64,000 nucleotides of DNA from Candidatus Aldehydirespiratoraceae bacterium (lineage in GTDB: Bacteria; Actinomycetota; Acidimicrobiia; Acidimicrobiales; Aldehydirespiratoraceae): assembly GCA_965203375.1 (NCBI GenBank), contig OZ241886.1, positions 28,818-92,817 on the forward strand, read 5' to 3'. The translations under genes and the position numbers were made by a program. Positions 15,301 to 23,432 of this stretch are shown in pieces (the first letter of the stretch is position 1; every line of letters begins with the position of its first letter). The notes below the pieces were generated by a model that did no database searches, was not told the DNA's origin, and saw nothing but the letters and a program-made list of their open reading frames with translations.

Positions 15301-15585
15301 GGTGCGGTCTGAGGATGCCCCGCCGTCTGACCGCCCGTGAGCGAATCGAGGCGTCGATCCCAGAGGCCGACTTCTAGAGCCGATTCTGGGGCCGCTCCGA
15401 TCAGCGGCAGGCCCGGGTCATTGGAGCGGCAGCCGTCCGTGTTCGTTGGCGAATGCCTCGCTCAAAGCTTCCTGCCCGGCCGCCTGTGCCGCGCTCAGGG
15501 CCCGCTCGGCGGCGGCCCAGTCGGTGATCCAGTCTTTGTTGTCGGCGCGCATCCCCGAGATCGTTCCCGCTAGCTGAGACTCCTC

Positions 15586-15764
15586 TTAATCCTCTAGTTC
15601 TAGATCAGCCCAAGCCTGACCGCTCGGCCCAAGTACATGCTTTTCAAAAGCTTCCTTGACGGCACGATCTATGGATTCTTGTCGCCTATTGGTCTTAATT
15701 AGGGACGATATTTGGTTATGCGTCTCTTATCGACAATGCGTCTTTCTATTGTGCTGGTGAGCAC
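15586..15764 (-). pseudogene. Possible frameshifted small ORF downstream of the Ntn-like operon
   Basis: GTG15764 opens MLTSTIERRIVDKRRITKYRP*. The adjacent frame continues LIKTNRRQESIDRAVKEAFEKHVLGPSGQAWADLELED* with no start codon of its own. AT-rich like the island. Confidence 0.25.
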
Positions 15765-15786
15765 AGTATGCTGACCGAGGTTGAGA

Positions 15787-15981
15787 TCAGTCAGTTTCTC
15801 TTTGGCTTGACGTCCGATTCTCTGCTTCTTTCACGGCCTGCTCAAATATCTCTGCAGCAATACGCCGACCGAAAGCCCGCGGATCCTCGTGCGGTGTATC
15901 CTTAGGTATCTTATTCCTTTGGATAACTTTAGCAAGCCCCCGGAACTCTTGACGGAATGACTCTTCAGGTACTTGAGACAT
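15787..15981 (-). CDS. Small hypothetical protein (64 aa) coupled to the Ntn-like gene
   Basis: The ORF overlaps the 3' end of 15965..17320 by 17 nt on the same strand. AT-rich. Confidence 0.45.
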   Translation of the reverse strand: MSQVPEESFRQEFRGLAKVIQRNKIPKDTPHEDPRAFGRRIAAEIFEQAVKEAENRTSSQRETD

Positions 15982-17320
15982 CGTTCATCCTCCCTCGGAC
16001 TCGAACATCGTTCTTATCTTTATTTTCGGCTGGACTTAGGTTTCGGTTTAAGTACCTAAGGTTCAGCTCTGAGTCGAAATAGTGCTTACGCTTAATCCAT
16101 ATGAGGCCATCTCCTTTTGAGATAACAGCAACATCAATTGGACCACCGACATCTTCATACTCAGGCGTTACCCTACGCCGAAGTGATGTAAGAGATATAA
16201 GAGATTCCGCCATCTCAGCTAGCTCTTCTTTAGGCAGCAAATTAACTATAGACATAATTGGATCGGAATATTGATCCATAAGGTAACCACCAAGTTTATC
16301 TTGAAAGCTCTCAACTACTTCAGACCTAACTTTAGCCATTTCATCTAGTAGGTCCGAGTGCATAGAAGTTGAAATAGATTTCTTAATTTTATCTCCGAAG
16401 CGTTCAATAAGTCGCCCTATCACCTCATCAACAAAATCCTCAAGAACCAGACGATATTCAGGATGAATACCATCCATGAATGTTTCTATCATATCTCCTT
16501 GAGCAAATGGGCAAATAAAGGCAGACAATTCTACACCATTTGGATCTCTTACACCAATTTCAATACTCTTCAATAGGCGAGCCCTTATCTCTCTACCGGT
16601 GACACCATCAACCTCATAGTTCAATAGAGCAGGAAATAACTGGCTTGTACCGAATCCGACAACAACTACACCGCTAGAAAAAGGAGAAGCGACCTTAAGC
16701 GAAGCCCTTACCATAGCTTTAGCGCGTTGTCTGATTCTTTCACTTGATGGCAGGTCGCCCAAACATTCATCTACAAATTTTCTCCAATCGCCAACAGCCA
16801 AATTTATCTGTTTGCCAGCAGACACTTCACTTATCTCTTCAATTGACTCATACCTGCTAAGTTCATTGATTCTGGCTTCTATCTGGGAGATTACTTCATC
16901 ACGTATAACTTTCTTGCCGAGACGTTGAGACTTAGTACTCTTTTCTAGCAGCACTATTCTCACAGATTTACGTATATTGATCAACTCCCACATCGCTGTC
17001 TCAAAGATCCGTCTATACTGCTCGCTAGGATCGACAAATAAAGGTAACTTCCGGATAAAATCATCAGCATAGCCCTCAACTCTACTAAAATCATTTGATC
17101 CGAGATCACGTCGGTATTCTTTTACTATTGTCTCCCATGGTGTATGTCCGAAATTTGCTGATCCATAAACCATCACAGCAATTGGTTCATTCAATGAAAG
17201 GGGGAACAGCTTGTTAGCGGTGTTGTAGATCTTGCGGCCTTCAGGTCCGGTGAGCGTCACTGCGCTGTCGGCGGCAAGGGCTACTGCTTCTCGGTTGAGG
17301 ATTGCTACTTCAGCGGTCAC
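15965..17320 (-). CDS. Oversized proteasome-beta/HslV-like Ntn-hydrolase candidate with large insertions
   Basis: 451-aa ORF. MT-AEVAILNREAVALAADSAVT...NKLFPL...VYGSANF at the N-terminus, with VVVVGFG and GGPIDVAVISKGDGLIWIKRK near the C-terminus, follow the strand order and motifs of Thr1 Ntn hydrolases. The fold call is from motifs only. Confidence 0.5.
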   Translation of the reverse strand: MTAEVAILNREAVALAADSAVTLTGPEGRKIYNTANKLFPLSLNEPIAVMVYGSANFGHTPWETIVKEYRRDLGSNDFSRVEGYADDFIRKLPLFVDPSEQYRRIFETAMWELINIRKSVRIVLLEKSTKSQRLGKKVIRDEVISQIEARINELSRYESIEEISEVSAGKQINLAVGDWRKFVDECLGDLPSSERIRQRAKAMVRASLKVASPFSSGVVVVGFGTSQLFPALLNYEVDGVTGREIRARLLKSIEIGVRDPNGVELSAFICPFAQGDMIETFMDGIHPEYRLVLEDFVDEVIGRLIERFGDKIKKSISTSMHSDLLDEMAKVRSEVVESFQDKLGGYLMDQYSDPIMSIVNLLPKEELAEMAESLISLTSLRRRVTPEYEDVGGPIDVAVISKGDGLIWIKRKHYFDSELNLRYLNRNLSPAENKDKNDVRVRGRMNDVSST

Positions 17321-17448
17321 GGAATGCTCTCCAAGGTAAGCCGGGTTCGGACGGTCTGCTTGCTGAACAGGTCAATACGACGCCCGGCGAATCGTTCTCT
17401 GGGCAAGCCTACTCGGGCCTTGAAGCAATCGCAAGGTCTGAAAATAGT

Positions 17449-18030
17449 TCAGCCGGCGATGACGGTCACGCCGGCGGCGGCCATTTCGGCTAGGGCTGCC
17501 TCGGTGGTGGGTGCCGCCACTCCGGCGCAGTGCTCCAGCAGGACGGTGGTCTCGAAGCCCGCCCGGCGGGCGTCTAAGGCGGTGGCCCGCACGCAGTGGT
17601 CGGTGGCCAGGCCCACCACGTCGACCGCTTCCACATTCCGCTCGGACAGCCACGACCCCAGCGGCGTGGTCTCGTCTCCGGCCGCGGTCCCGTCGAAGCC
17701 GGTGTAGCTGGCGGTGTAGCGGCCCTTGAGGAATACCTCGTCGAGGGCCACATCGAGGTCGGGATGCAGCTCGGCGCCGGGCGAGGAGGCCACGCAGTGA
17801 ACCGGCCAGGTGTCGACGAAATTCGGGTCGGACCCTTCGGCGGCGAAGTGGTCGCCGGGGTCCACGTGCCAGTCCTTGGTGGCCACCACGTGCCGGTAGC
17901 GGCCCCCAGCCCGGTCGGCGCCCACCAAGCCGGCAACGGACCGGGCCACGGCCGCTCCTCCCTCCACGGCCAGGGCGCCCCCCTCGCAGAAGTCGTTCTG
18001 GACGTCGACGATTATCAACGCTCGGTTCAT
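17449..18030 (-). CDS. pncA: Nicotinamidase/pyrazinamidase (isochorismatase family)
   Basis: MNRALIIVDVQNDFCEGGALAV... and the ...ATDHCV motif (Cys nucleophile region) are typical of PncA. Confidence 0.85.
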   Translation of the reverse strand: MNRALIIVDVQNDFCEGGALAVEGGAAVARSVAGLVGADRAGGRYRHVVATKDWHVDPGDHFAAEGSDPNFVDTWPVHCVASSPGAELHPDLDVALDEVFLKGRYTASYTGFDGTAAGDETTPLGSWLSERNVEAVDVVGLATDHCVRATALDARRAGFETTVLLEHCAGVAAPTTEAALAEMAAAGVTVIAG

Positions 18031-18040
18031 GGCGCCTCTC

Positions 18041-19525
18041 CTATTCGTTCGGCGTGCTCTCGCTCGGTGGGCTCTCGCTCGGCGTGCTCTTCGGTCCGCT
18101 CTCGCTCGGTGTGCCTGCCTGAGCCGGGCCAGCGCCTGCGCCGGACGAGCGGGCGGGCACCTCCCCTGTATCTATCGGCTGTTCGACCCCCACCCAGACG
18201 GTGGGGACGGCCGGGGACCGGCGGGGATGGGGGACCCGGTCGGAGGGCCGCAGCCTCTCCCGGCGCTCCAGGCAGCGGGCCCGGGCCTCCCCCACGTCGC
18301 CGCAGGCCATGGGCTCGCCCGCGGTGATCAGGGCCCGCTGGGGCCGGTGCGAGCCCTCGGGGACTTCGACGGGCAGCACCGACAGCACCTCGGCCGACCA
18401 GAACCCGTCGGAGTCCACCGTGCGATGCACCTTCTTGCGGCCGCCGACGGTCGACTTGCCCGGCGAGAGCTTCCCCACCGCCCGCAGGGGCGCGGCCTCC
18501 TCGGCCGAGTCGGCGATGGCCACCAGCTTGTAGACCACCGAGGCGGTGGGATGGCCCGACCCGGTGACCAGGCTGGTGCCCACCAGGTAGGCGTCGATCG
18601 GGGCCCGGGCCTCCTCCAGCTCGGCCACCCGGTACTCGTCGAGATCGCCCGACGCCACGATCCGGCAGTTCGCCGCGCCCAGCTCGTCCAGCAGGGCCCG
18701 GGCCCGGATGCTGGAGGCCAGCAGGTTGCCGCTGTCGATGCGGACCGCCCCGATGCCGGGGCCGACCGCCGCCACCGCTCGCCGGATGCCCTCGAGAACA
18801 TCAAAGGTGTCGACCAGGTAGGTGGAGCCGGCACCGAGCACGTCCCGCTGGGCCTCGAAGGCGGCCGACTCGCCGGAGTGGGCCAGCACGAAGGCGTGGG
18901 CGGCGGTACCACCGGTGGGGATGCCGTGGCGGCGGCCGGTCTCGAGGTTGGAGGTGGTGTCGAAACCGCCCACGTGGGCGGCCCGGGCGGCGGCCACCGC
19001 CGCGTCGGGATCGGTGCGCCGGCTGCCGCCCTCAATGAGGAGGCGGCCGTTGGCCACATCGTGGACCCGGGCCGCGGCCGAGGCCACCGCGCAGTCGTGG
19101 TTGAGGATCGACAGCACCACCGTCTCCAGCACGACGCACTCGGCGAAGGACCCCTCGATGGTCAGCACCGGCGAATACGGGAAGAACAGCTCCCCGTCGG
19201 GGTAGCCGGTCACGTCCCCCCGGAACCGGTAACCGCGCAGCCACCGGGCCATGGGGCCGTCGGATATCACGCCCGCGCCGATCAGATAGCCGACGGCCTC
19301 GTCGTCGAAGCGGAACCGCCCGATGGCGTCCACCACCCGGTCGATGCCGGCCACCACCCCGTAGGCCCGGCCCTCGGGCAGCCGGCGGGCGAACGCCTCG
19401 AAGACGGCCCGGCGGTCGGCGATCCCCGACTCGAGCGAGGCGGCCACCATGGTGAGCTCGTAGTGGTCGGTCTGGAGGGCGACAACGGCGCCGCGGCCCA
19501 TCCCCCGAACGCTACCGGCCCGCAC
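18041..19525 (-). CDS. pncB: Nicotinate phosphoribosyltransferase
   Basis: LQTDHYELTMVAASL...AVFEAFARRLPEGRAYGVVAG is the NAPRTase N-terminus. Full-length, with a low-complexity tail (PSESGPKSTPSESPPSESTPNE). Confidence 0.85.
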   Translation of the reverse strand: MRAGSVRGMGRGAVVALQTDHYELTMVAASLESGIADRRAVFEAFARRLPEGRAYGVVAGIDRVVDAIGRFRFDDEAVGYLIGAGVISDGPMARWLRGYRFRGDVTGYPDGELFFPYSPVLTIEGSFAECVVLETVVLSILNHDCAVASAAARVHDVANGRLLIEGGSRRTDPDAAVAAARAAHVGGFDTTSNLETGRRHGIPTGGTAAHAFVLAHSGESAAFEAQRDVLGAGSTYLVDTFDVLEGIRRAVAAVGPGIGAVRIDSGNLLASSIRARALLDELGAANCRIVASGDLDEYRVAELEEARAPIDAYLVGTSLVTGSGHPTASVVYKLVAIADSAEEAAPLRAVGKLSPGKSTVGGRKKVHRTVDSDGFWSAEVLSVLPVEVPEGSHRPQRALITAGEPMACGDVGEARARCLERRERLRPSDRVPHPRRSPAVPTVWVGVEQPIDTGEVPARSSGAGAGPAQAGTPSESGPKSTPSESPPSESTPNE

Positions 19526-19571
19526 TCCGGCGGCCCGCAGCGAGCCCGGCCGCGACCTGCAACCCGTAGAG

Positions 19572-21302
19572 CTACCGCCGGTCGGCCGCCGCCGCGGTCC
19601 GAGCGATGGCGTCGAGCTTCTCGGTTATCTCCGGGTCAATCTCGTCGTCGGGGACATGGTCCGCCAGCACGTGGAAGTTGGTCTTCCTCATCAAGTTCGG
19701 CAAGGACAGCCGCCGATAATAGTCGTTGAACAAGGGAGTGAGGAAGTCGTCACTCACCTTTGTGTCGTCATCCCAGGGTGAACTCTGGCCCAGCGTCGCC
19801 ATCGCTCTTTCGATCTCATCTATCGCCTCGTTCATCGCCCCCATCCGCCTCTCGACTTCGGATTCGTCGAACAAGGGGCCGGGGTACTCGGCTTCAGCCG
19901 TGGCCGACGCGTACGATTCGAGCGCAGCCCGCGAGCAGAGATAGTTCTCGATCTCTCGCTGGTTCCAGCCCAGGCAACTGAAGTTTTTGTCGGATGGCTC
20001 AGCGACCGTCTCATCCAGGATCACGATCGCCCGCAAATGCGGAAGGGCCTCCTGCAACCCATGATAATGATTGCGAGCCTTCACAACCTGATTGCCGACA
20101 TAGTGAACGAAGGGCCGGTCGAGGGCCCGGGCTGCGTCGGCGTGTCCGAGCCGATCGGCGAAAGCTCTGAGGATGGCCAAATCGGTTGAGCCTTCAAGAT
20201 AGAGCACCCAGCCCGTCTGCTCGGCCTGGACATAGTGCTCGAAACCAATGTCTCTGAGCGCCTTATGTACCTGACTGCCACGGTCGTCAATGCGGTGGGG
20301 CAGGCCGACGAAAGCGACCACCACATCTTTGCCAGCGGCTTCGTTGAGCAGCGCTTCCGAATGGCTGGCCGCGATCACTTGACTGCCGCTGGACTCGGCC
20401 GTCTCCTGTATGCAGTGATAGATCTGGCGCTGCCTCAATATCTCGAGGTGGGCATCGGGCTCGTCCAGCATGAGCACAGCGCCAGGGTCGACGGCGTACA
20501 TGTAGGAGAGAATCAGCAGGGTCTGCTGAAGCCCTCGGCCGCTGGAGGAGAGGTCGAGCGAGGCACCGTTCTCCCGGTAGCTCATGGTGATCTCGCCTCG
20601 CTCATCCACGTAGCGGGGATCTTCGAGGCATGCGCCGAACAGGCTCTCAATCTGCTCGACTAGCCGTTCCCACTGCTCGGGGTGCTCGCGGTAGACGCGG
20701 AAGCAGAGGTTTCGCAGCACCTCGGCAGTCCGGCCTTCGCCGACTCGCACATTGATCGAGCCTGGATCGAGGCGCGTTTCAGTAGCAGCCAGACCCGACA
20801 TCGGCGGGAGGAAGGCCACTTCCACCAAGCCCGCCTCGGGCGGAACGGGCATTCGCTCGGAGGTCCGGCCCCTTCCGACCCGCAAGGGACGGCAGTAGAA
20901 CGACTCCTCGTTGGCGTAGTCAAACTCCAGCCCGCAGGACCACGCCTGGTTGCCGTCCACGCCGTCCACTGAGATCTCAATGCGGATGTTGCTCGTCTGG
21001 GGCCGTCCGTCGACCCGGCGCACGTTGCGGGTGTGGAGATCCCGCCACAGCAAGTTGGCGGCCGGCGTCGGGATGGCCATCAGGTCTCGACGGTTCACCG
21101 TGACTCCCGGCCGCTTCTCGGGCCCGGTCGAACGGGCCCGACGGGCATTCCAGCGCTTCAGCCCCGCGTTCCACAGCGCCAGCGCCTGCATGGCGGAGGT
21201 CTTGCCCGAGTTGTTGGGGCCGATGAACAAGACAGGGTCACCTAATTCGACCTCGACATGGTCGAAGCGCTTGAAGTTGCGGATGACGAGGTTGGTCAAC
21301 AC
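19572..21302 (-). CDS. OLD/PARIS-like ABC-type ATPase fused to DUF4435/Toprim-like domain
   Basis: Walker A GPNNSGKTS, SSSGRGLQQ, Walker B VLMLDEPDAHL and ASHSE. The C-terminal WVLYLEGSTDLAILRAF resembles the xEGxxD Toprim/DUF4435 core. Confidence 0.6.
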   Translation of the reverse strand: MLTNLVIRNFKRFDHVEVELGDPVLFIGPNNSGKTSAMQALALWNAGLKRWNARRARSTGPEKRPGVTVNRRDLMAIPTPAANLLWRDLHTRNVRRVDGRPQTSNIRIEISVDGVDGNQAWSCGLEFDYANEESFYCRPLRVGRGRTSERMPVPPEAGLVEVAFLPPMSGLAATETRLDPGSINVRVGEGRTAEVLRNLCFRVYREHPEQWERLVEQIESLFGACLEDPRYVDERGEITMSYRENGASLDLSSSGRGLQQTLLILSYMYAVDPGAVLMLDEPDAHLEILRQRQIYHCIQETAESSGSQVIAASHSEALLNEAAGKDVVVAFVGLPHRIDDRGSQVHKALRDIGFEHYVQAEQTGWVLYLEGSTDLAILRAFADRLGHADAARALDRPFVHYVGNQVVKARNHYHGLQEALPHLRAIVILDETVAEPSDKNFSCLGWNQREIENYLCSRAALESYASATAEAEYPGPLFDESEVERRMGAMNEAIDEIERAMATLGQSSPWDDDTKVSDDFLTPLFNDYYRRLSLPNLMRKTNFHVLADHVPDDEIDPEITEKLDAIARTAAAADRR

Positions 21303-21310
21303 GGCGGAAC

Positions 21311-21496
21311 CTCTTCGGCGGTTCCCACCACCCTAGGACTGAACGGGGGCGGAGGGGGCGGGACTTTCCCCGACCCCTCGGCGGTTCCCACCGAGCTACG
21401 GCTGAAAGCGGCTGGATGGGACTCCGCTGCCTCTTCGGCGGTTCCCACCAAAGCTACGGTTGAACAGCGCGGAGGGGGTCGGGACTTCGCCGGACC
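21311..21496. repeat. Three tandem ~55-65 bp repeats in a divergent intergenic region
   Basis: Units start at 21311, 21376 and 21431. Each has TCGGCGGTTCCCACC, then CTA(C/G)G(G/A)(C/T)TGAA, then a GGGACT-containing tail. Confidence 0.7.
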
Positions 21497-21569
21497 GCGT
21501 CAGGCCGTACGCGGACGGGGCGGTGGTCCGTAGGCTCGGCTTGGCGGATGCGGCGAGGAGGGTGAGGCC

Positions 21570-23432
21570 GTGGTGGCAGTCAGCGGATTCCACGTGATGT
21601 ACTCCATGTCCGCCGACACCTCGGACCTGGCCGGGCGGCGGATCGGGCGCGAGACCCGGCGGCGGGTGTGGGGGTTCGCCCGCCCCTACCGGCGCCTGAT
21701 CGCCGCCTTCATGGCCGCCGTGGTGGCCGCCACCTTCCTGGGCCTGCTGCCGCCCCTGCTCATACGCCAGGTCTTCGACGTGGCCATCGCCGACGGCAAC
21801 GGCCGCTACCTCAACGTCCTGTTCGCGGTGATAGTGGCCGCGGCCCTGGGCGAAGCCCTGCTCACGCTGCTGGAGCGGTGGCTGTCGGCCACGGTGGGCG
21901 AGGGACTGATATTCGACCTGAGGGCGGCGCTGTTCGACCATGTGCAGCGGATGCCGGTGCTGTTCTTCACCCGGACCCAGACCGGCACCCTGATCAGCCG
22001 GCTCAACAACGACGTGATCGGAGCCCAGCGGGCCTTCACCGGAACGCTGGGCACGGTGGTCAGCAACGTGATCACCCTGGTCGGCACCCTGGCCGCCATG
22101 TTCCTGCTCGAATGGCGGCTGACCCTGCTGGCCGTGGTCATCGTGCCGCTGTTCGTCCTGCCCGCCCGCCGGGTGGGCCGCCGCCTCCAGGCCATCACCC
22201 GAGAGGGGATGGACCTCAACGCCTCCATGAACGACACCATGACCGAGCGGTTCAACGTGGCCGGGGCCCTGCTGGTCAAGCTGTTCGGGCGCCACGACGG
22301 CGAGGCCCGCGACTTCGCCCGGCGGGCCGGGCGGGTGCGCGACATCGGGGTGCGCAGCGCCATGTACTCGCGGGTGTTCCTCATCGCCCTGACCTTCGTG
22401 GGGGCGGCCGGCACCGCCGTCGTCTACTGGCTGGGCGGCCACCTCACCATCGACGGCGCCCTGACTGCGGGCACCCTGGTGGCCCTCGGCCTGTACACGG
22501 TGCGGATCTACGTGCCGCTGACCAGCCTCTCCAACGCCAGGGTGGACGTGATGACCGCGTTCGTGAGCTTCGAGCGGGTGTTCGAGGTGCTCGACGCCCC
22601 CAACCCGATCACCGACGCCCCCGGCGCCCGGGACTTGGCCGACCCCGAAGGCCGGGTCCGCTTCGACCGGGTCCGCTTCGCCTTTCCGGCCGAGGCCGGG
22701 CCCGAGTCTCTGGGCTTCGGCGGGGGCGACGCCTCCGGCGACGTGCTGACCGATGTCGACCTCGAGATCCCCCCGGGCCGGATGGTGGCGGTGGTCGGCC
22801 CGTCGGGGGCGGGCAAGACCACGCTGGCGTCGCTGATCCCCCGGCTCCACGACGTGACCGGCGGGGCGGTGTCGGTGGACGGCGTCGACGTCCGCCAACT
22901 CACCCAGGACTCGCTGCGGGCGGCCATCGGGGTGGTGACCCAGGACCCGCACCTGTTCCACGACACCATCGCCGCCAACCTGCTCTACGCCCGCCCCGGC
23001 GCCTCGGCCGCCGAGCTGGAGGCGGCCTGCCGGGCCGCCCGCATCCACGACGTGATCGCGGCCCTGCCCGAGAGGTACGACACCGTGGTGGGCGAGCGGG
23101 GCTACCGGCTCTCCGGCGGCGAGAAGCAGCGGCTGGCCATCGCCCGGATGCTGCTCAAGGACCCGGCCATCGTCATCCTCGACGAGGCCACCTCCCACCT
23201 CGACAGCGAGAACGAGGCCCACGTCCAGGAGGCCCTGGCCGAGGCGCTGAGGGGCCGCACCTCGCTGGTGATCGCCCACCGCCTGTCCACCATCGCCGAC
23301 GCCGACGTGATCGTCGTGCTCGACGAGGGCCGGATCGTCGAGTCGGGGACCCACGAGGAGCTGCGCCGGGCCGGGGGCCTCTACGAGGAGCTGTACGAGA
23401 CCCTGATGCGGGCCGAGGCCGCGCCGGCATGA
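21570..23432 (+). CDS. ABC exporter, fused permease/ATPase (MsbA/multidrug type)
   Basis: Six-TM N-terminal half, then GPSGAGKTT, LSGGEKQRLAIARMLL and ILDEATSHLD. Confidence 0.85.
   Translation: MVAVSGFHVMYSMSADTSDLAGRRIGRETRRRVWGFARPYRRLIAAFMAAVVAATFLGLLPPLLIRQVFDVAIADGNGRYLNVLFAVIVAAALGEALLTLLERWLSATVGEGLIFDLRAALFDHVQRMPVLFFTRTQTGTLISRLNNDVIGAQRAFTGTLGTVVSNVITLVGTLAAMFLLEWRLTLLAVVIVPLFVLPARRVGRRLQAITREGMDLNASMNDTMTERFNVAGALLVKLFGRHDGEARDFARRAGRVRDIGVRSAMYSRVFLIALTFVGAAGTAVVYWLGGHLTIDGALTAGTLVALGLYTVRIYVPLTSLSNARVDVMTAFVSFERVFEVLDAPNPITDAPGARDLADPEGRVRFDRVRFAFPAEAGPESLGFGGGDASGDVLTDVDLEIPPGRMVAVVGPSGAGKTTLASLIPRLHDVTGGAVSVDGVDVRQLTQDSLRAAIGVVTQDPHLFHDTIAANLLYARPGASAAELEAACRAARIHDVIAALPERYDTVVGERGYRLSGGEKQRLAIARMLLKDPAIVILDEATSHLDSENEAHVQEALAEALRGRTSLVIAHRLSTIADADVIVVLDEGRIVESGTHEELRRAGGLYEELYETLMRAEAAPA

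Follow-up and report, generated by a model that had tools for sequence, protein, structure and literature searches.

The gene and its locus

The window analyzed here is a stretch of 64,000 nucleotides (nt) from Candidatus Aldehydirespiratoraceae bacterium, order Acidimicrobiales (contig OZ241886.1). It contains a complete gene on the minus strand (19572..21302) that encodes a single polypeptide of 576 amino acids (aa) in which an ATP-binding cassette (ABC) ATPase is followed by a Toprim-like domain and then by a helical tail. The gene starts with GTG and ends with TAG. The N-terminus of the encoded protein, V/M-LTNLVIRNFKRF, agrees with the consensus start of the homologs, MLTxLTIRNFKRF, and this conservation supports the GTG start. 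Thousands of full-length homologs of the protein were found, and an exact-sequence look-up of the window protein itself returned no record.

The gene is located upstream of the nicotinamide adenine dinucleotide (NAD) salvage genes pncB (18041-19525) and pncA (17449-18030). The gap between the ATPase gene and pncB is 46 nt, as an earlier reading of this DNA (below, the sequence-only reading) had it, and contains no terminator-like site. On the other side the gene is divergently oriented from a gene encoding an ABC exporter (21570-23432), beyond which lie xseA, xseB, a polyprenyl synthase gene and prfC. The remark of the same reading that the gene is less GC-rich than its flanks also holds: the GC content is 62.7% in the ATPase gene vs 72-76% in the flanking genes, and the GC content of third codon positions (GC3) is 79% vs 93-97%.

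The ATPase domain

All sequence motifs named in the sequence-only reading are present in the 576-aa open reading frame (ORF), namely GPNNSGKTS (28-36), SSSGRGLQQ (252-260), VLMLDEPDAHL (276-286), ASHSE (312-316) and WVLYLEGSTDLAILRAFADRLGH (365-387). The first four belong to an ABC ATPase of the OLD/AriA type (residues 1-330; 20313..21302, on the minus strand like all features of the gene listed below) with an insertion between the Walker A motif and the signature. The Walker A motif is G28-PNNSGK34-T35 (21198..21221; G28, G33 and K34 invariant). It is followed by the ABC signature region L251-SSSGRGLQQ260 (20523..20552; G257 and Q260 invariant), the Walker B motif and D-loop V276-LMLDEPDAH285 with D280 and E281 (20448..20477; E281, P282 and H285 invariant), and the H-loop A311-ASHSE316 with H314 (20355..20372). 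Residues K34, G257, Q260, E281, H285, H314 and, in the C-terminal domain, D374 do not vary among 48 relatives, the most distant of which are 36% identical. Since the ATPase motifs are invariant, the predicted protein should bind and hydrolyze ATP.

The ATPase type proposed earlier is supported by several searches. The Pfam matches are AAA_15 (E-value 3.3e-19, 70.2 bits) and AAA_21 (5.4e-19, 69.8 bits), with weaker matches to SMC_N and AAA_23. Among the PADLOC models, NsnB, AriA, mad3 and the fused AriAB lead, and GajA, AbiLi and Old come after them. The AriAB model PDLC02981 scores 50.8 bits (E-value 2.7e-14), its best stretch aligning residues 219-456, through the Toprim-like core, with positions 270-522 of 694; this coverage of the model is partial, and the score is probably driven by the ATPase part. 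The top match among the PDB sequences is 6p74, the class 1 OLD protein of Thermus scotoductus (Ts). A whole-protein AlphaFold model with a predicted local distance difference test score (pLDDT) of 69 retrieved PtuA, Ts OLD 6p74 and GajA in a Foldseek search.

The C-terminal domain

The C-terminus had been described in the sequence-only reading as a DUF4435 or Toprim-like domain. When it was modeled alone with AlphaFold2 (AF2) from a diverse alignment, the model had pLDDT 95.4 and a predicted template modeling score (pTM) of 0.91. It contains a Toprim-like core at residues 360-457 (19932..20225), identified from the model, Foldseek and hhalign, in which strand beta1 (365-369) is followed by helices, strand beta2 (399-401), a helix, strands beta3 (424-429) and beta4 (441-445), and one more helix. 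Strands beta3 and beta4 are about 11 residues apart, and the modeled core has no large helical insertion. The beta-alpha-beta core is followed by a helical bundle, and over half of the domain is helical. This all-helical region (residues 458-576; 19575..19931) closes with a conserved helix IDPEV..KLDAI.

The core contains a cluster of conserved acids. The motif E370-G-S-T-D374 (20181..20195) provides the candidate Toprim glutamate and a second acid; E370 is conserved in at least 90% of sequences and D374 is invariant. D430 at the end of beta3 (20013..20015) is the sole conserved acid at the DxD position. The motif E450-I-E452-N-Y454 (19941..19955), conserved at 90% or more, contains the candidate ExE ligands of a second metal. 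Each of E370, D374, D430, E450 and E452 is conserved at 90% or more, compared to the family mean column identity of 38%. In a full-length comparison the segment LLVEGKTE of P2 Old aligned with LYLEGSTD of the window protein. FLEDSD of an AriAB-like family described below aligned with the same segment.

Among 350,542 PDB chains, the best four Foldseek matches of the C-terminal model are two entries of AriB (8ux9_A, 8v46_D) and two of the Xanthomonas (Xcc) OLD C-terminal region (6njx, 6njv; probability 0.94-0.97, template modeling (TM) score 0.38-0.49). The E-values are 0.011-0.064 and the TM scores 0.22-0.49. GajA and the retron Eco8 protein are lower-ranked matches. Although these E-values are marginal, the matches are specifically to AriB and OLD nuclease domains.

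The closest annotated relative found is the 625-aa ATPase WP_114083283.1, encoded on plasmid pNsp_c of Nostoc sp. ATCC 53789 (L088:4001-5878), which is also the best plasmid match. It is 25% identical to the window protein over residues 1-457 (E-value 4e-26, pairwise BLASTP), and its best PADLOC model is AriAB (E-value 2.2e-32). The hhalign comparison of the C-terminal families of the two proteins gave a probability of 93.5% (E-value 2.4e-7, 205 columns); the C-terminal domains are homologous over the whole length. The conserved motifs of the Nostoc protein family are FLEDSD, RDGD (a full DxD) and EIENY. The EIENY motif and the terminal helix are common to the window family, whereas of the DxD motif the latter has only D430, which the alignment pairs with the first aspartate of RDGD. 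The genomic context is also different: WP_114083283.1 is encoded inside a BREX-1 operon, with pglX and pglZ on either side, and the window family is solitary.

An HMMER search with residues 331-576 against 1.84 billion representative sequences yielded 740 clusters. In nearly all full-length members, which are about 580 aa long, the domain spans approximately positions 320-575, and thus the fusion is the rule. Short database entries containing the domain are mostly fragments that start in the ATPase tail; one 236-aa entry (P0188) possibly stands alone.

Several observations weigh against the assignment of this domain. The DxD motif lacks a conserved second acid: the position D430 +2 is occupied by T, L, Q, N, I, D, G, P or C. 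No DUF4435 or Toprim match was found by Pfam in the isolated C-terminus at E-values up to 10, and at E-values up to 0.01 the 48 relatives matched ATPase families only. No PADLOC model, including AriB, matched the isolated C-terminus (about 240-250 aa). The C-terminal alignment profile retrieved only chance matches from the PDB sequences (FIC proteins, E-value 0.23), and its hhalign comparison with the C-terminus of P2 Old covered only the EG motif, at 0.9% probability. The Foldseek E-values of 0.01-0.06 are marginal. A Foldseek search of the model against the viral collection BFVD gave nothing meaningful. The profile of the AriAB-like family likewise retrieved nothing from the PDB sequences and did not match P2 Old in hhalign.

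However, the missing second acid of DxD does not exclude catalysis, because Cran1 is an active nickase with LxD (L391-x-D393), that is, with a single aspartate at the DxD position (PMC12796447). The predicted fold and the remote homology support the interpretation of the C-terminal half as a divergent OLD/AriB-type Toprim domain that is very probably catalytic, a probable metal-dependent nuclease. Thus the Toprim-like part of the earlier description is supported at the level of fold and remote homology, with five candidate acids now located, whereas the DUF4435 part is not: the domain is outside this Pfam family as it is now defined.

Comparison with known systems

The class 1 OLD proteins are encoded by lone genes without a fixed partner (PMC10568477). 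All-vs-all clustering of ORFs from 83 loci revealed no conserved partner of the window gene, in agreement with the earlier description of it as a singleton, and thus it matches the definition of class 1. The proteins of this class (P2 Old, Ts OLD 6p74 and the protein of Vibrio cholerae) have the architecture predicted for the window protein: a single chain, roughly 520-590 aa long, in which an ABC ATPase containing an insertion precedes a C-terminal Toprim domain. The EGxx[DE] motif at a strand end is common to P2 Old and the window protein, while no sequence similarity could be detected in the rest of the domain. The window family differs from class 1 OLD in that DxD is reduced to one aspartate and the C-terminus is missed by Pfam. 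Its conservation across phyla far exceeds that of typical OLD proteins, and it was not found in the phage and plasmid collections.

The PARIS system has an AAA_15/AAA_21 ATPase (AriA) and a Toprim-type nuclease (AriB), in the same order as in the window protein, and AriA-AriB fusions are known (PMC9122126). The Pfam thresholds used for PARIS are 32 bits for AAA_15, 27 bits for AAA_21 and 27 bits for DUF4435, PF14491 (PMC9122126). The window protein exceeds the first two and has no match to the third. The acidic residues of AriB are E26, D30, D88, E90 and E122 (PMC11464382). The pattern E-x3-D ... D ... E of the window protein resembles E26/D30/D88/E122, and an equivalent of E90 is absent. PARIS is activated when a trigger induces the release from AriA of an AriB dimer, which cleaves tRNA, whereas in a covalent fusion such as the window protein release of the nuclease would be impossible without proteolysis.

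Cran1, a class 5 OLD protein of Sulfolobales, has the same general OLD architecture and demonstrates that non-defense roles are possible for OLD enzymes. Its metal A is bound by E338, L391 and D393, and metal B by E341, E409 and E411 (PMC12796447). In Cran1, E409 and E411 are located about 16-18 residues past D393; the corresponding residues of the window protein are D430 and E450/E452. Overall, the conserved acids of the window protein are spaced much as in the two-metal sites of Cran1 and AriB. However, Cran1 has a helical insertion in the Toprim domain and a conserved gene neighborhood, and is inherited vertically within one archaeal order, whereas the window family is patchy, horizontally spread and has no conserved neighbors.

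An ATPase and a Toprim fold are also present in GajA (class 2 OLD) and the effectors of Eco8-type retrons (class 3 OLD). No UvrD/PcrA-like helicase similar to GajB is adjacent to the window gene or present among the surveyed neighbors of its homologs. There is no reverse transcriptase gene among these neighbors, and a search for noncoding RNA in positions 19300-21800 gave no Rfam match.

The window protein is thus class-1-like by genomic context and closest to fused PARIS (AriAB) by sequence. It is a divergent member of the OLD/PARIS ATPase-Toprim kind and not a new kind of system.

Distribution and gene neighborhoods

A scan of one genome per species identified at least 492 relatives. The best 80 of them, 57-91% identical to the window protein over the full length, are distributed among Acidimicrobiia, Dehalococcoidia, Latescibacterota, Nitrospira, Acidobacteriota, Alpha- and Gammaproteobacteria, Rhodothermales, Planctomycetota, Poribacteria, Verrucomicrobiota and other groups, and include one copy (58% identity) in a metagenome-assembled genome (MAG) of Bathyarchaeota. 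The closest copy, in an uncultured Acidimicrobiales MAG (L004), is 91% identical. The homologs with 57-75% identity occur in more than 15 phyla, and the copies of Dehalococcoidia (72-73%) are closer to the window copy than those of other Acidimicrobiia (59-66%). Both observations indicate horizontal transfer, and the sequence comparison implies that the family has spread horizontally across phyla.

The names of several carriers, such as Poribacteria, Poriferisodalis, Poriferihabitaceae, Latescibacterota and Dehalococcoidia, hint at lineages that are associated with sponges or are otherwise environmental and uncultured. There are no cultured model organisms among the carriers of the best 80 relatives.

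The surroundings of the homologs are variable. A Pfam census of 128 flanking ORFs produced 169 families, none of which is present in more than three loci; the commonest are sulfatase (three loci), type I HsdS (three of about 75 loci) and PIN (two loci). No mobility genes were found near the homologs in the surveyed loci. Giant genes upstream of the homolog recur in just two or three loci each. In two loci the homolog is preceded by a gene for a protein of about 1000 aa. In three unrelated genomes (L084:2446-6987, L086:2227-6966, L048:1430-5947) it is preceded, at a distance of 14-54 nt, by a gene whose product, about 1500 aa long, matches no Pfam domain and shows a weak similarity to the PADLOC candidate PDC-M54A (E-value 4e-14). 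The latter protein and the homolog could form an optional two-gene arrangement. One homolog (L085:1-8743) is located in a defense island that contains type I restriction-modification genes (HsdM, HsdS), an MNT/HEPN pair and, directly upstream of the homolog, a gene for a 1274-aa Dsr1 SIR2 protein.

Insertion site and NAD-salvage genes

In the three close relatives (L001, L002 and L004), whose neighboring genes are 85-97% identical to those of the window, the gene is at the same site. In two more distant genomes, L091 and L095 (pncB 72-78% and exporter 75-78% identical), the exporter gene is 188 bp from pncB and the ATPase gene is absent. Hence the presence/absence difference that the sequence-only reading had looked to synteny for does exist, and the gene is not universally syntenic in the lineage. 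It was inserted between the ABC exporter gene and pncB in one clade of Acidimicrobiales, and is an accessory gene of foreign base composition. No direct or inverted flanking repeats, terminal repeats or target-site duplication were found around the window gene.

The link to NAD metabolism that had been put forward as a speculation found no support and is rejected. None of the 80 pncB loci carries the ATPase gene, and adjacency to pncB is observed only in the window's own clade. Given these loci and the empty sites, the neighborhood of the NAD-salvage genes is a lineage-specific insertion site rather than a functional link. This removes the tempting idea of a functional tie to NAD salvage.

Selection and mosaic divergence

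The window gene (19572-21302) was compared with its syntenic orthologs L001:8001-9731, L002:8001-9773 and L004:6001-7760. The ratio of nonsynonymous to synonymous substitution rates (dN/dS) is 0.12-0.15, which shows that the gene is under strong purifying selection. By the flanking genes, the four genomes form two sister pairs, the window with L001 (95-97% nucleotide identity) and L002 with L004 (97-99%). The topology of the ATPase gene conflicts with that of the flanks: identity within the pairs is only 86.3% and 89.4%, respectively, and the window copy is nearest to that of L004 (89.9%). The synonymous divergence (dS) of the ATPase gene is 0.36-0.57 vs 0.08-0.26 in the flanks, a 3-6-fold excess.

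The drop of identity is limited to the ATPase gene and is mosaic. Between L002 and L004, 60 of the 173 differences fall in the 195 nt that encode residues 380-445, and none of 200 permutations was as clustered. The simplest reading is recombination with divergent alleles; as the gene is not at compositional equilibrium, an elevated rate of synonymous change may contribute.

Possible function

We lean slightly towards the interpretation that, by analogy with the known systems, the gene encodes a solitary, class-1-like defense enzyme of the OLD family, in which an ABC ATPase is joined to a divergent Toprim nuclease that ends in a helical tail. The analyses above show the domain architecture, intact ATPase motifs, a conserved acidic cluster within a predicted Toprim-type fold, and the lack of a conserved partner. 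Some copies have a defense context, namely the Dsr1, restriction-modification and MNT/HEPN island and the three loci with PDC-M54A-like neighbors.

By analogy with P2 Old, the Ts and Vibrio cholerae OLD proteins, GajA and PARIS, the ATPase would serve as a sensor and a gate that answers to the nucleotide state, a phage protein or a nucleic acid. On infection it would license the Toprim site to cut nucleic acid by two-metal catalysis, with E370 and D430 as the proposed ligands of one metal, and D374, E450 and E452 as those of the other. Both P2 Old and AriB cut tRNAs (PMC12445682, PMC12409363), and the class 1 OLD protein of Vibrio nicks DNA (PMC12392090). Cleavage of DNA or tRNA may thus halt phage replication or host growth and abort the infection. 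As the nuclease is tethered, activation cannot occur by release, as it does with AriB and AriA; it would be conformational or proceed via oligomerization.

A further-reaching proposal is that the family constitutes a distinct unnamed class of the OLD type, a one-chain PARIS-like protein with a single-aspartate Toprim domain missed by profiles, spread by horizontal transfer through more than 15 phyla, mostly of uncultured bacteria, and at least one archaeon, and kept at fixed chromosomal sites by allele swapping. The allele swapping is suggested by the relatives with 95-99% identical flanks that differ by 10-14% in the ATPase gene, in mosaic tracts. We consider this proposal tentative and probably too strong. 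If it is true, one tethered protein both senses and kills, with an activation logic unlike both the AriA/AriB release and GajA/GajB.

The main competing explanation is a cellular, non-defense OLD enzyme that, like Cran1 with its role in the cell cycle, is kept for a direct benefit to the host, as an ATP-gated nickase that would repair DNA, maintain the chromosome or process RNA. A number of observations would fit such a role, and several of them are at odds with a defense function. The dN/dS of the ATPase gene is below that of the housekeeping flanks. Defense genes are seldom as similar across phyla as this one, at 57-75% identity. Inheritance within the window's clade is stable, the gene having the same synteny in three relatives, and the short gap without a terminator-like site makes co-transcription with pncB-pncA possible. 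The neighbors of the family are mostly ordinary metabolic genes, and no family members were found in 72,556 plasmids and 50,697 phage records. Finally, Cran1 itself is a precedent of an active enzyme with LxD instead of DxD (PMC12796447). However, a host function would not be expected to leave empty sites where relatives share the flanking genes, a patchy distribution and a phylogeny at odds with taxonomy, including the 58% identical archaeal copy. The foreign GC and GC3, the absence of a conserved neighborhood such as that of cran1, the mosaic excess of divergence confined to this locus among near-identical genomes, and the copies in defense islands also argue against it. We regard the cellular role as unlikely.

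More doubtful is the possibility that the C-terminal domain is not a nuclease but a regulatory or oligomerization module with a convergent or vestigial likeness to Toprim, the protein acting by ATP-dependent binding. The failure of Pfam and PADLOC to match the C-terminus alone, and of Pfam to find Toprim or DUF4435 in the 48 relatives, would then be natural, as would the empty profile search of the PDB sequences, the uninformative search of BFVD, the Foldseek matches with TM-scores of at most 0.5, the incomplete DxD and the large helical part without an assigned function. On the other hand, the top structural matches are specifically the AriB and OLD nuclease domains, the hhalign match is to a family with canonical E, DxD and ExE motifs, and the five acids are positioned at the expected strand ends and conserved far above the family mean; moreover, Cran1 is an active nuclease with one aspartate at the DxD position (PMC12796447). 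Very improbable, in our opinion, is a selfish addiction or self-spreading element whose own activity penalizes its loss or drives its insertion or allele conversion. The solitary, intergenic position in many unrelated contexts without nearby mobility genes, the wide horizontal spread combined with high conservation, and the mosaic alleles among close relatives could be explained in this way, but there are neither terminal repeats nor a target-site duplication, no antitoxin-like partner is seen, and inheritance in the window's clade is stably vertical. We know of no OLD-family member that behaves as a selfish element.

To our knowledge, the solitary class 1 is the least understood class of OLD proteins. 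The family, if it belongs there, adds to it a very large and well-conserved set of sequences; one scan alone recovered it from at least 492 species-level genomes. Owing to this conservation the family can be aligned cleanly and modeled confidently, which provides a basis for probing the candidate two-metal site by mutagenesis. As Pfam and PADLOC miss the nuclease domain, the family is probably undercounted when defense systems are surveyed in environmental and symbiont genomes. Lastly, the filled and empty sites in Acidimicrobiales, together with the mosaic divergence, provide a usable case of entry and turnover of a putative single-gene immune module in streamlined, high-GC uncultured bacteria.

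The leader region and the adjacent low-GC segment

No sigma-70-like promoter was found at the ATPase gene. The 5' leader (21303..21486, minus strand) consists of three tandem imperfect copies of a unit of about 57-63 nt, in which no significant RNA structure is predicted. The unit terminates in GGTGGGAACCGCCGAAGAGG, and the final copy adjoins the GTG start, with a putative ribosome-binding site GAAGAGG just ahead of it. In the close relatives L001, L002 and L004 the unit is present in a single copy, vs three copies in the window.

The collinearity with the close relatives stops at the end of pncA (about 17448), and the region of approximately 15500-17448 differs. The window contains there a segment with 40% GC, in place of which the relatives have genes for a peroxiredoxin and an EamA transporter. 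The segment includes an ORF of 451 aa (15965-17320, minus strand; 40% GC, no Pfam match) about 2.2 kb from the ATPase gene, and is probably a separate foreign insertion.

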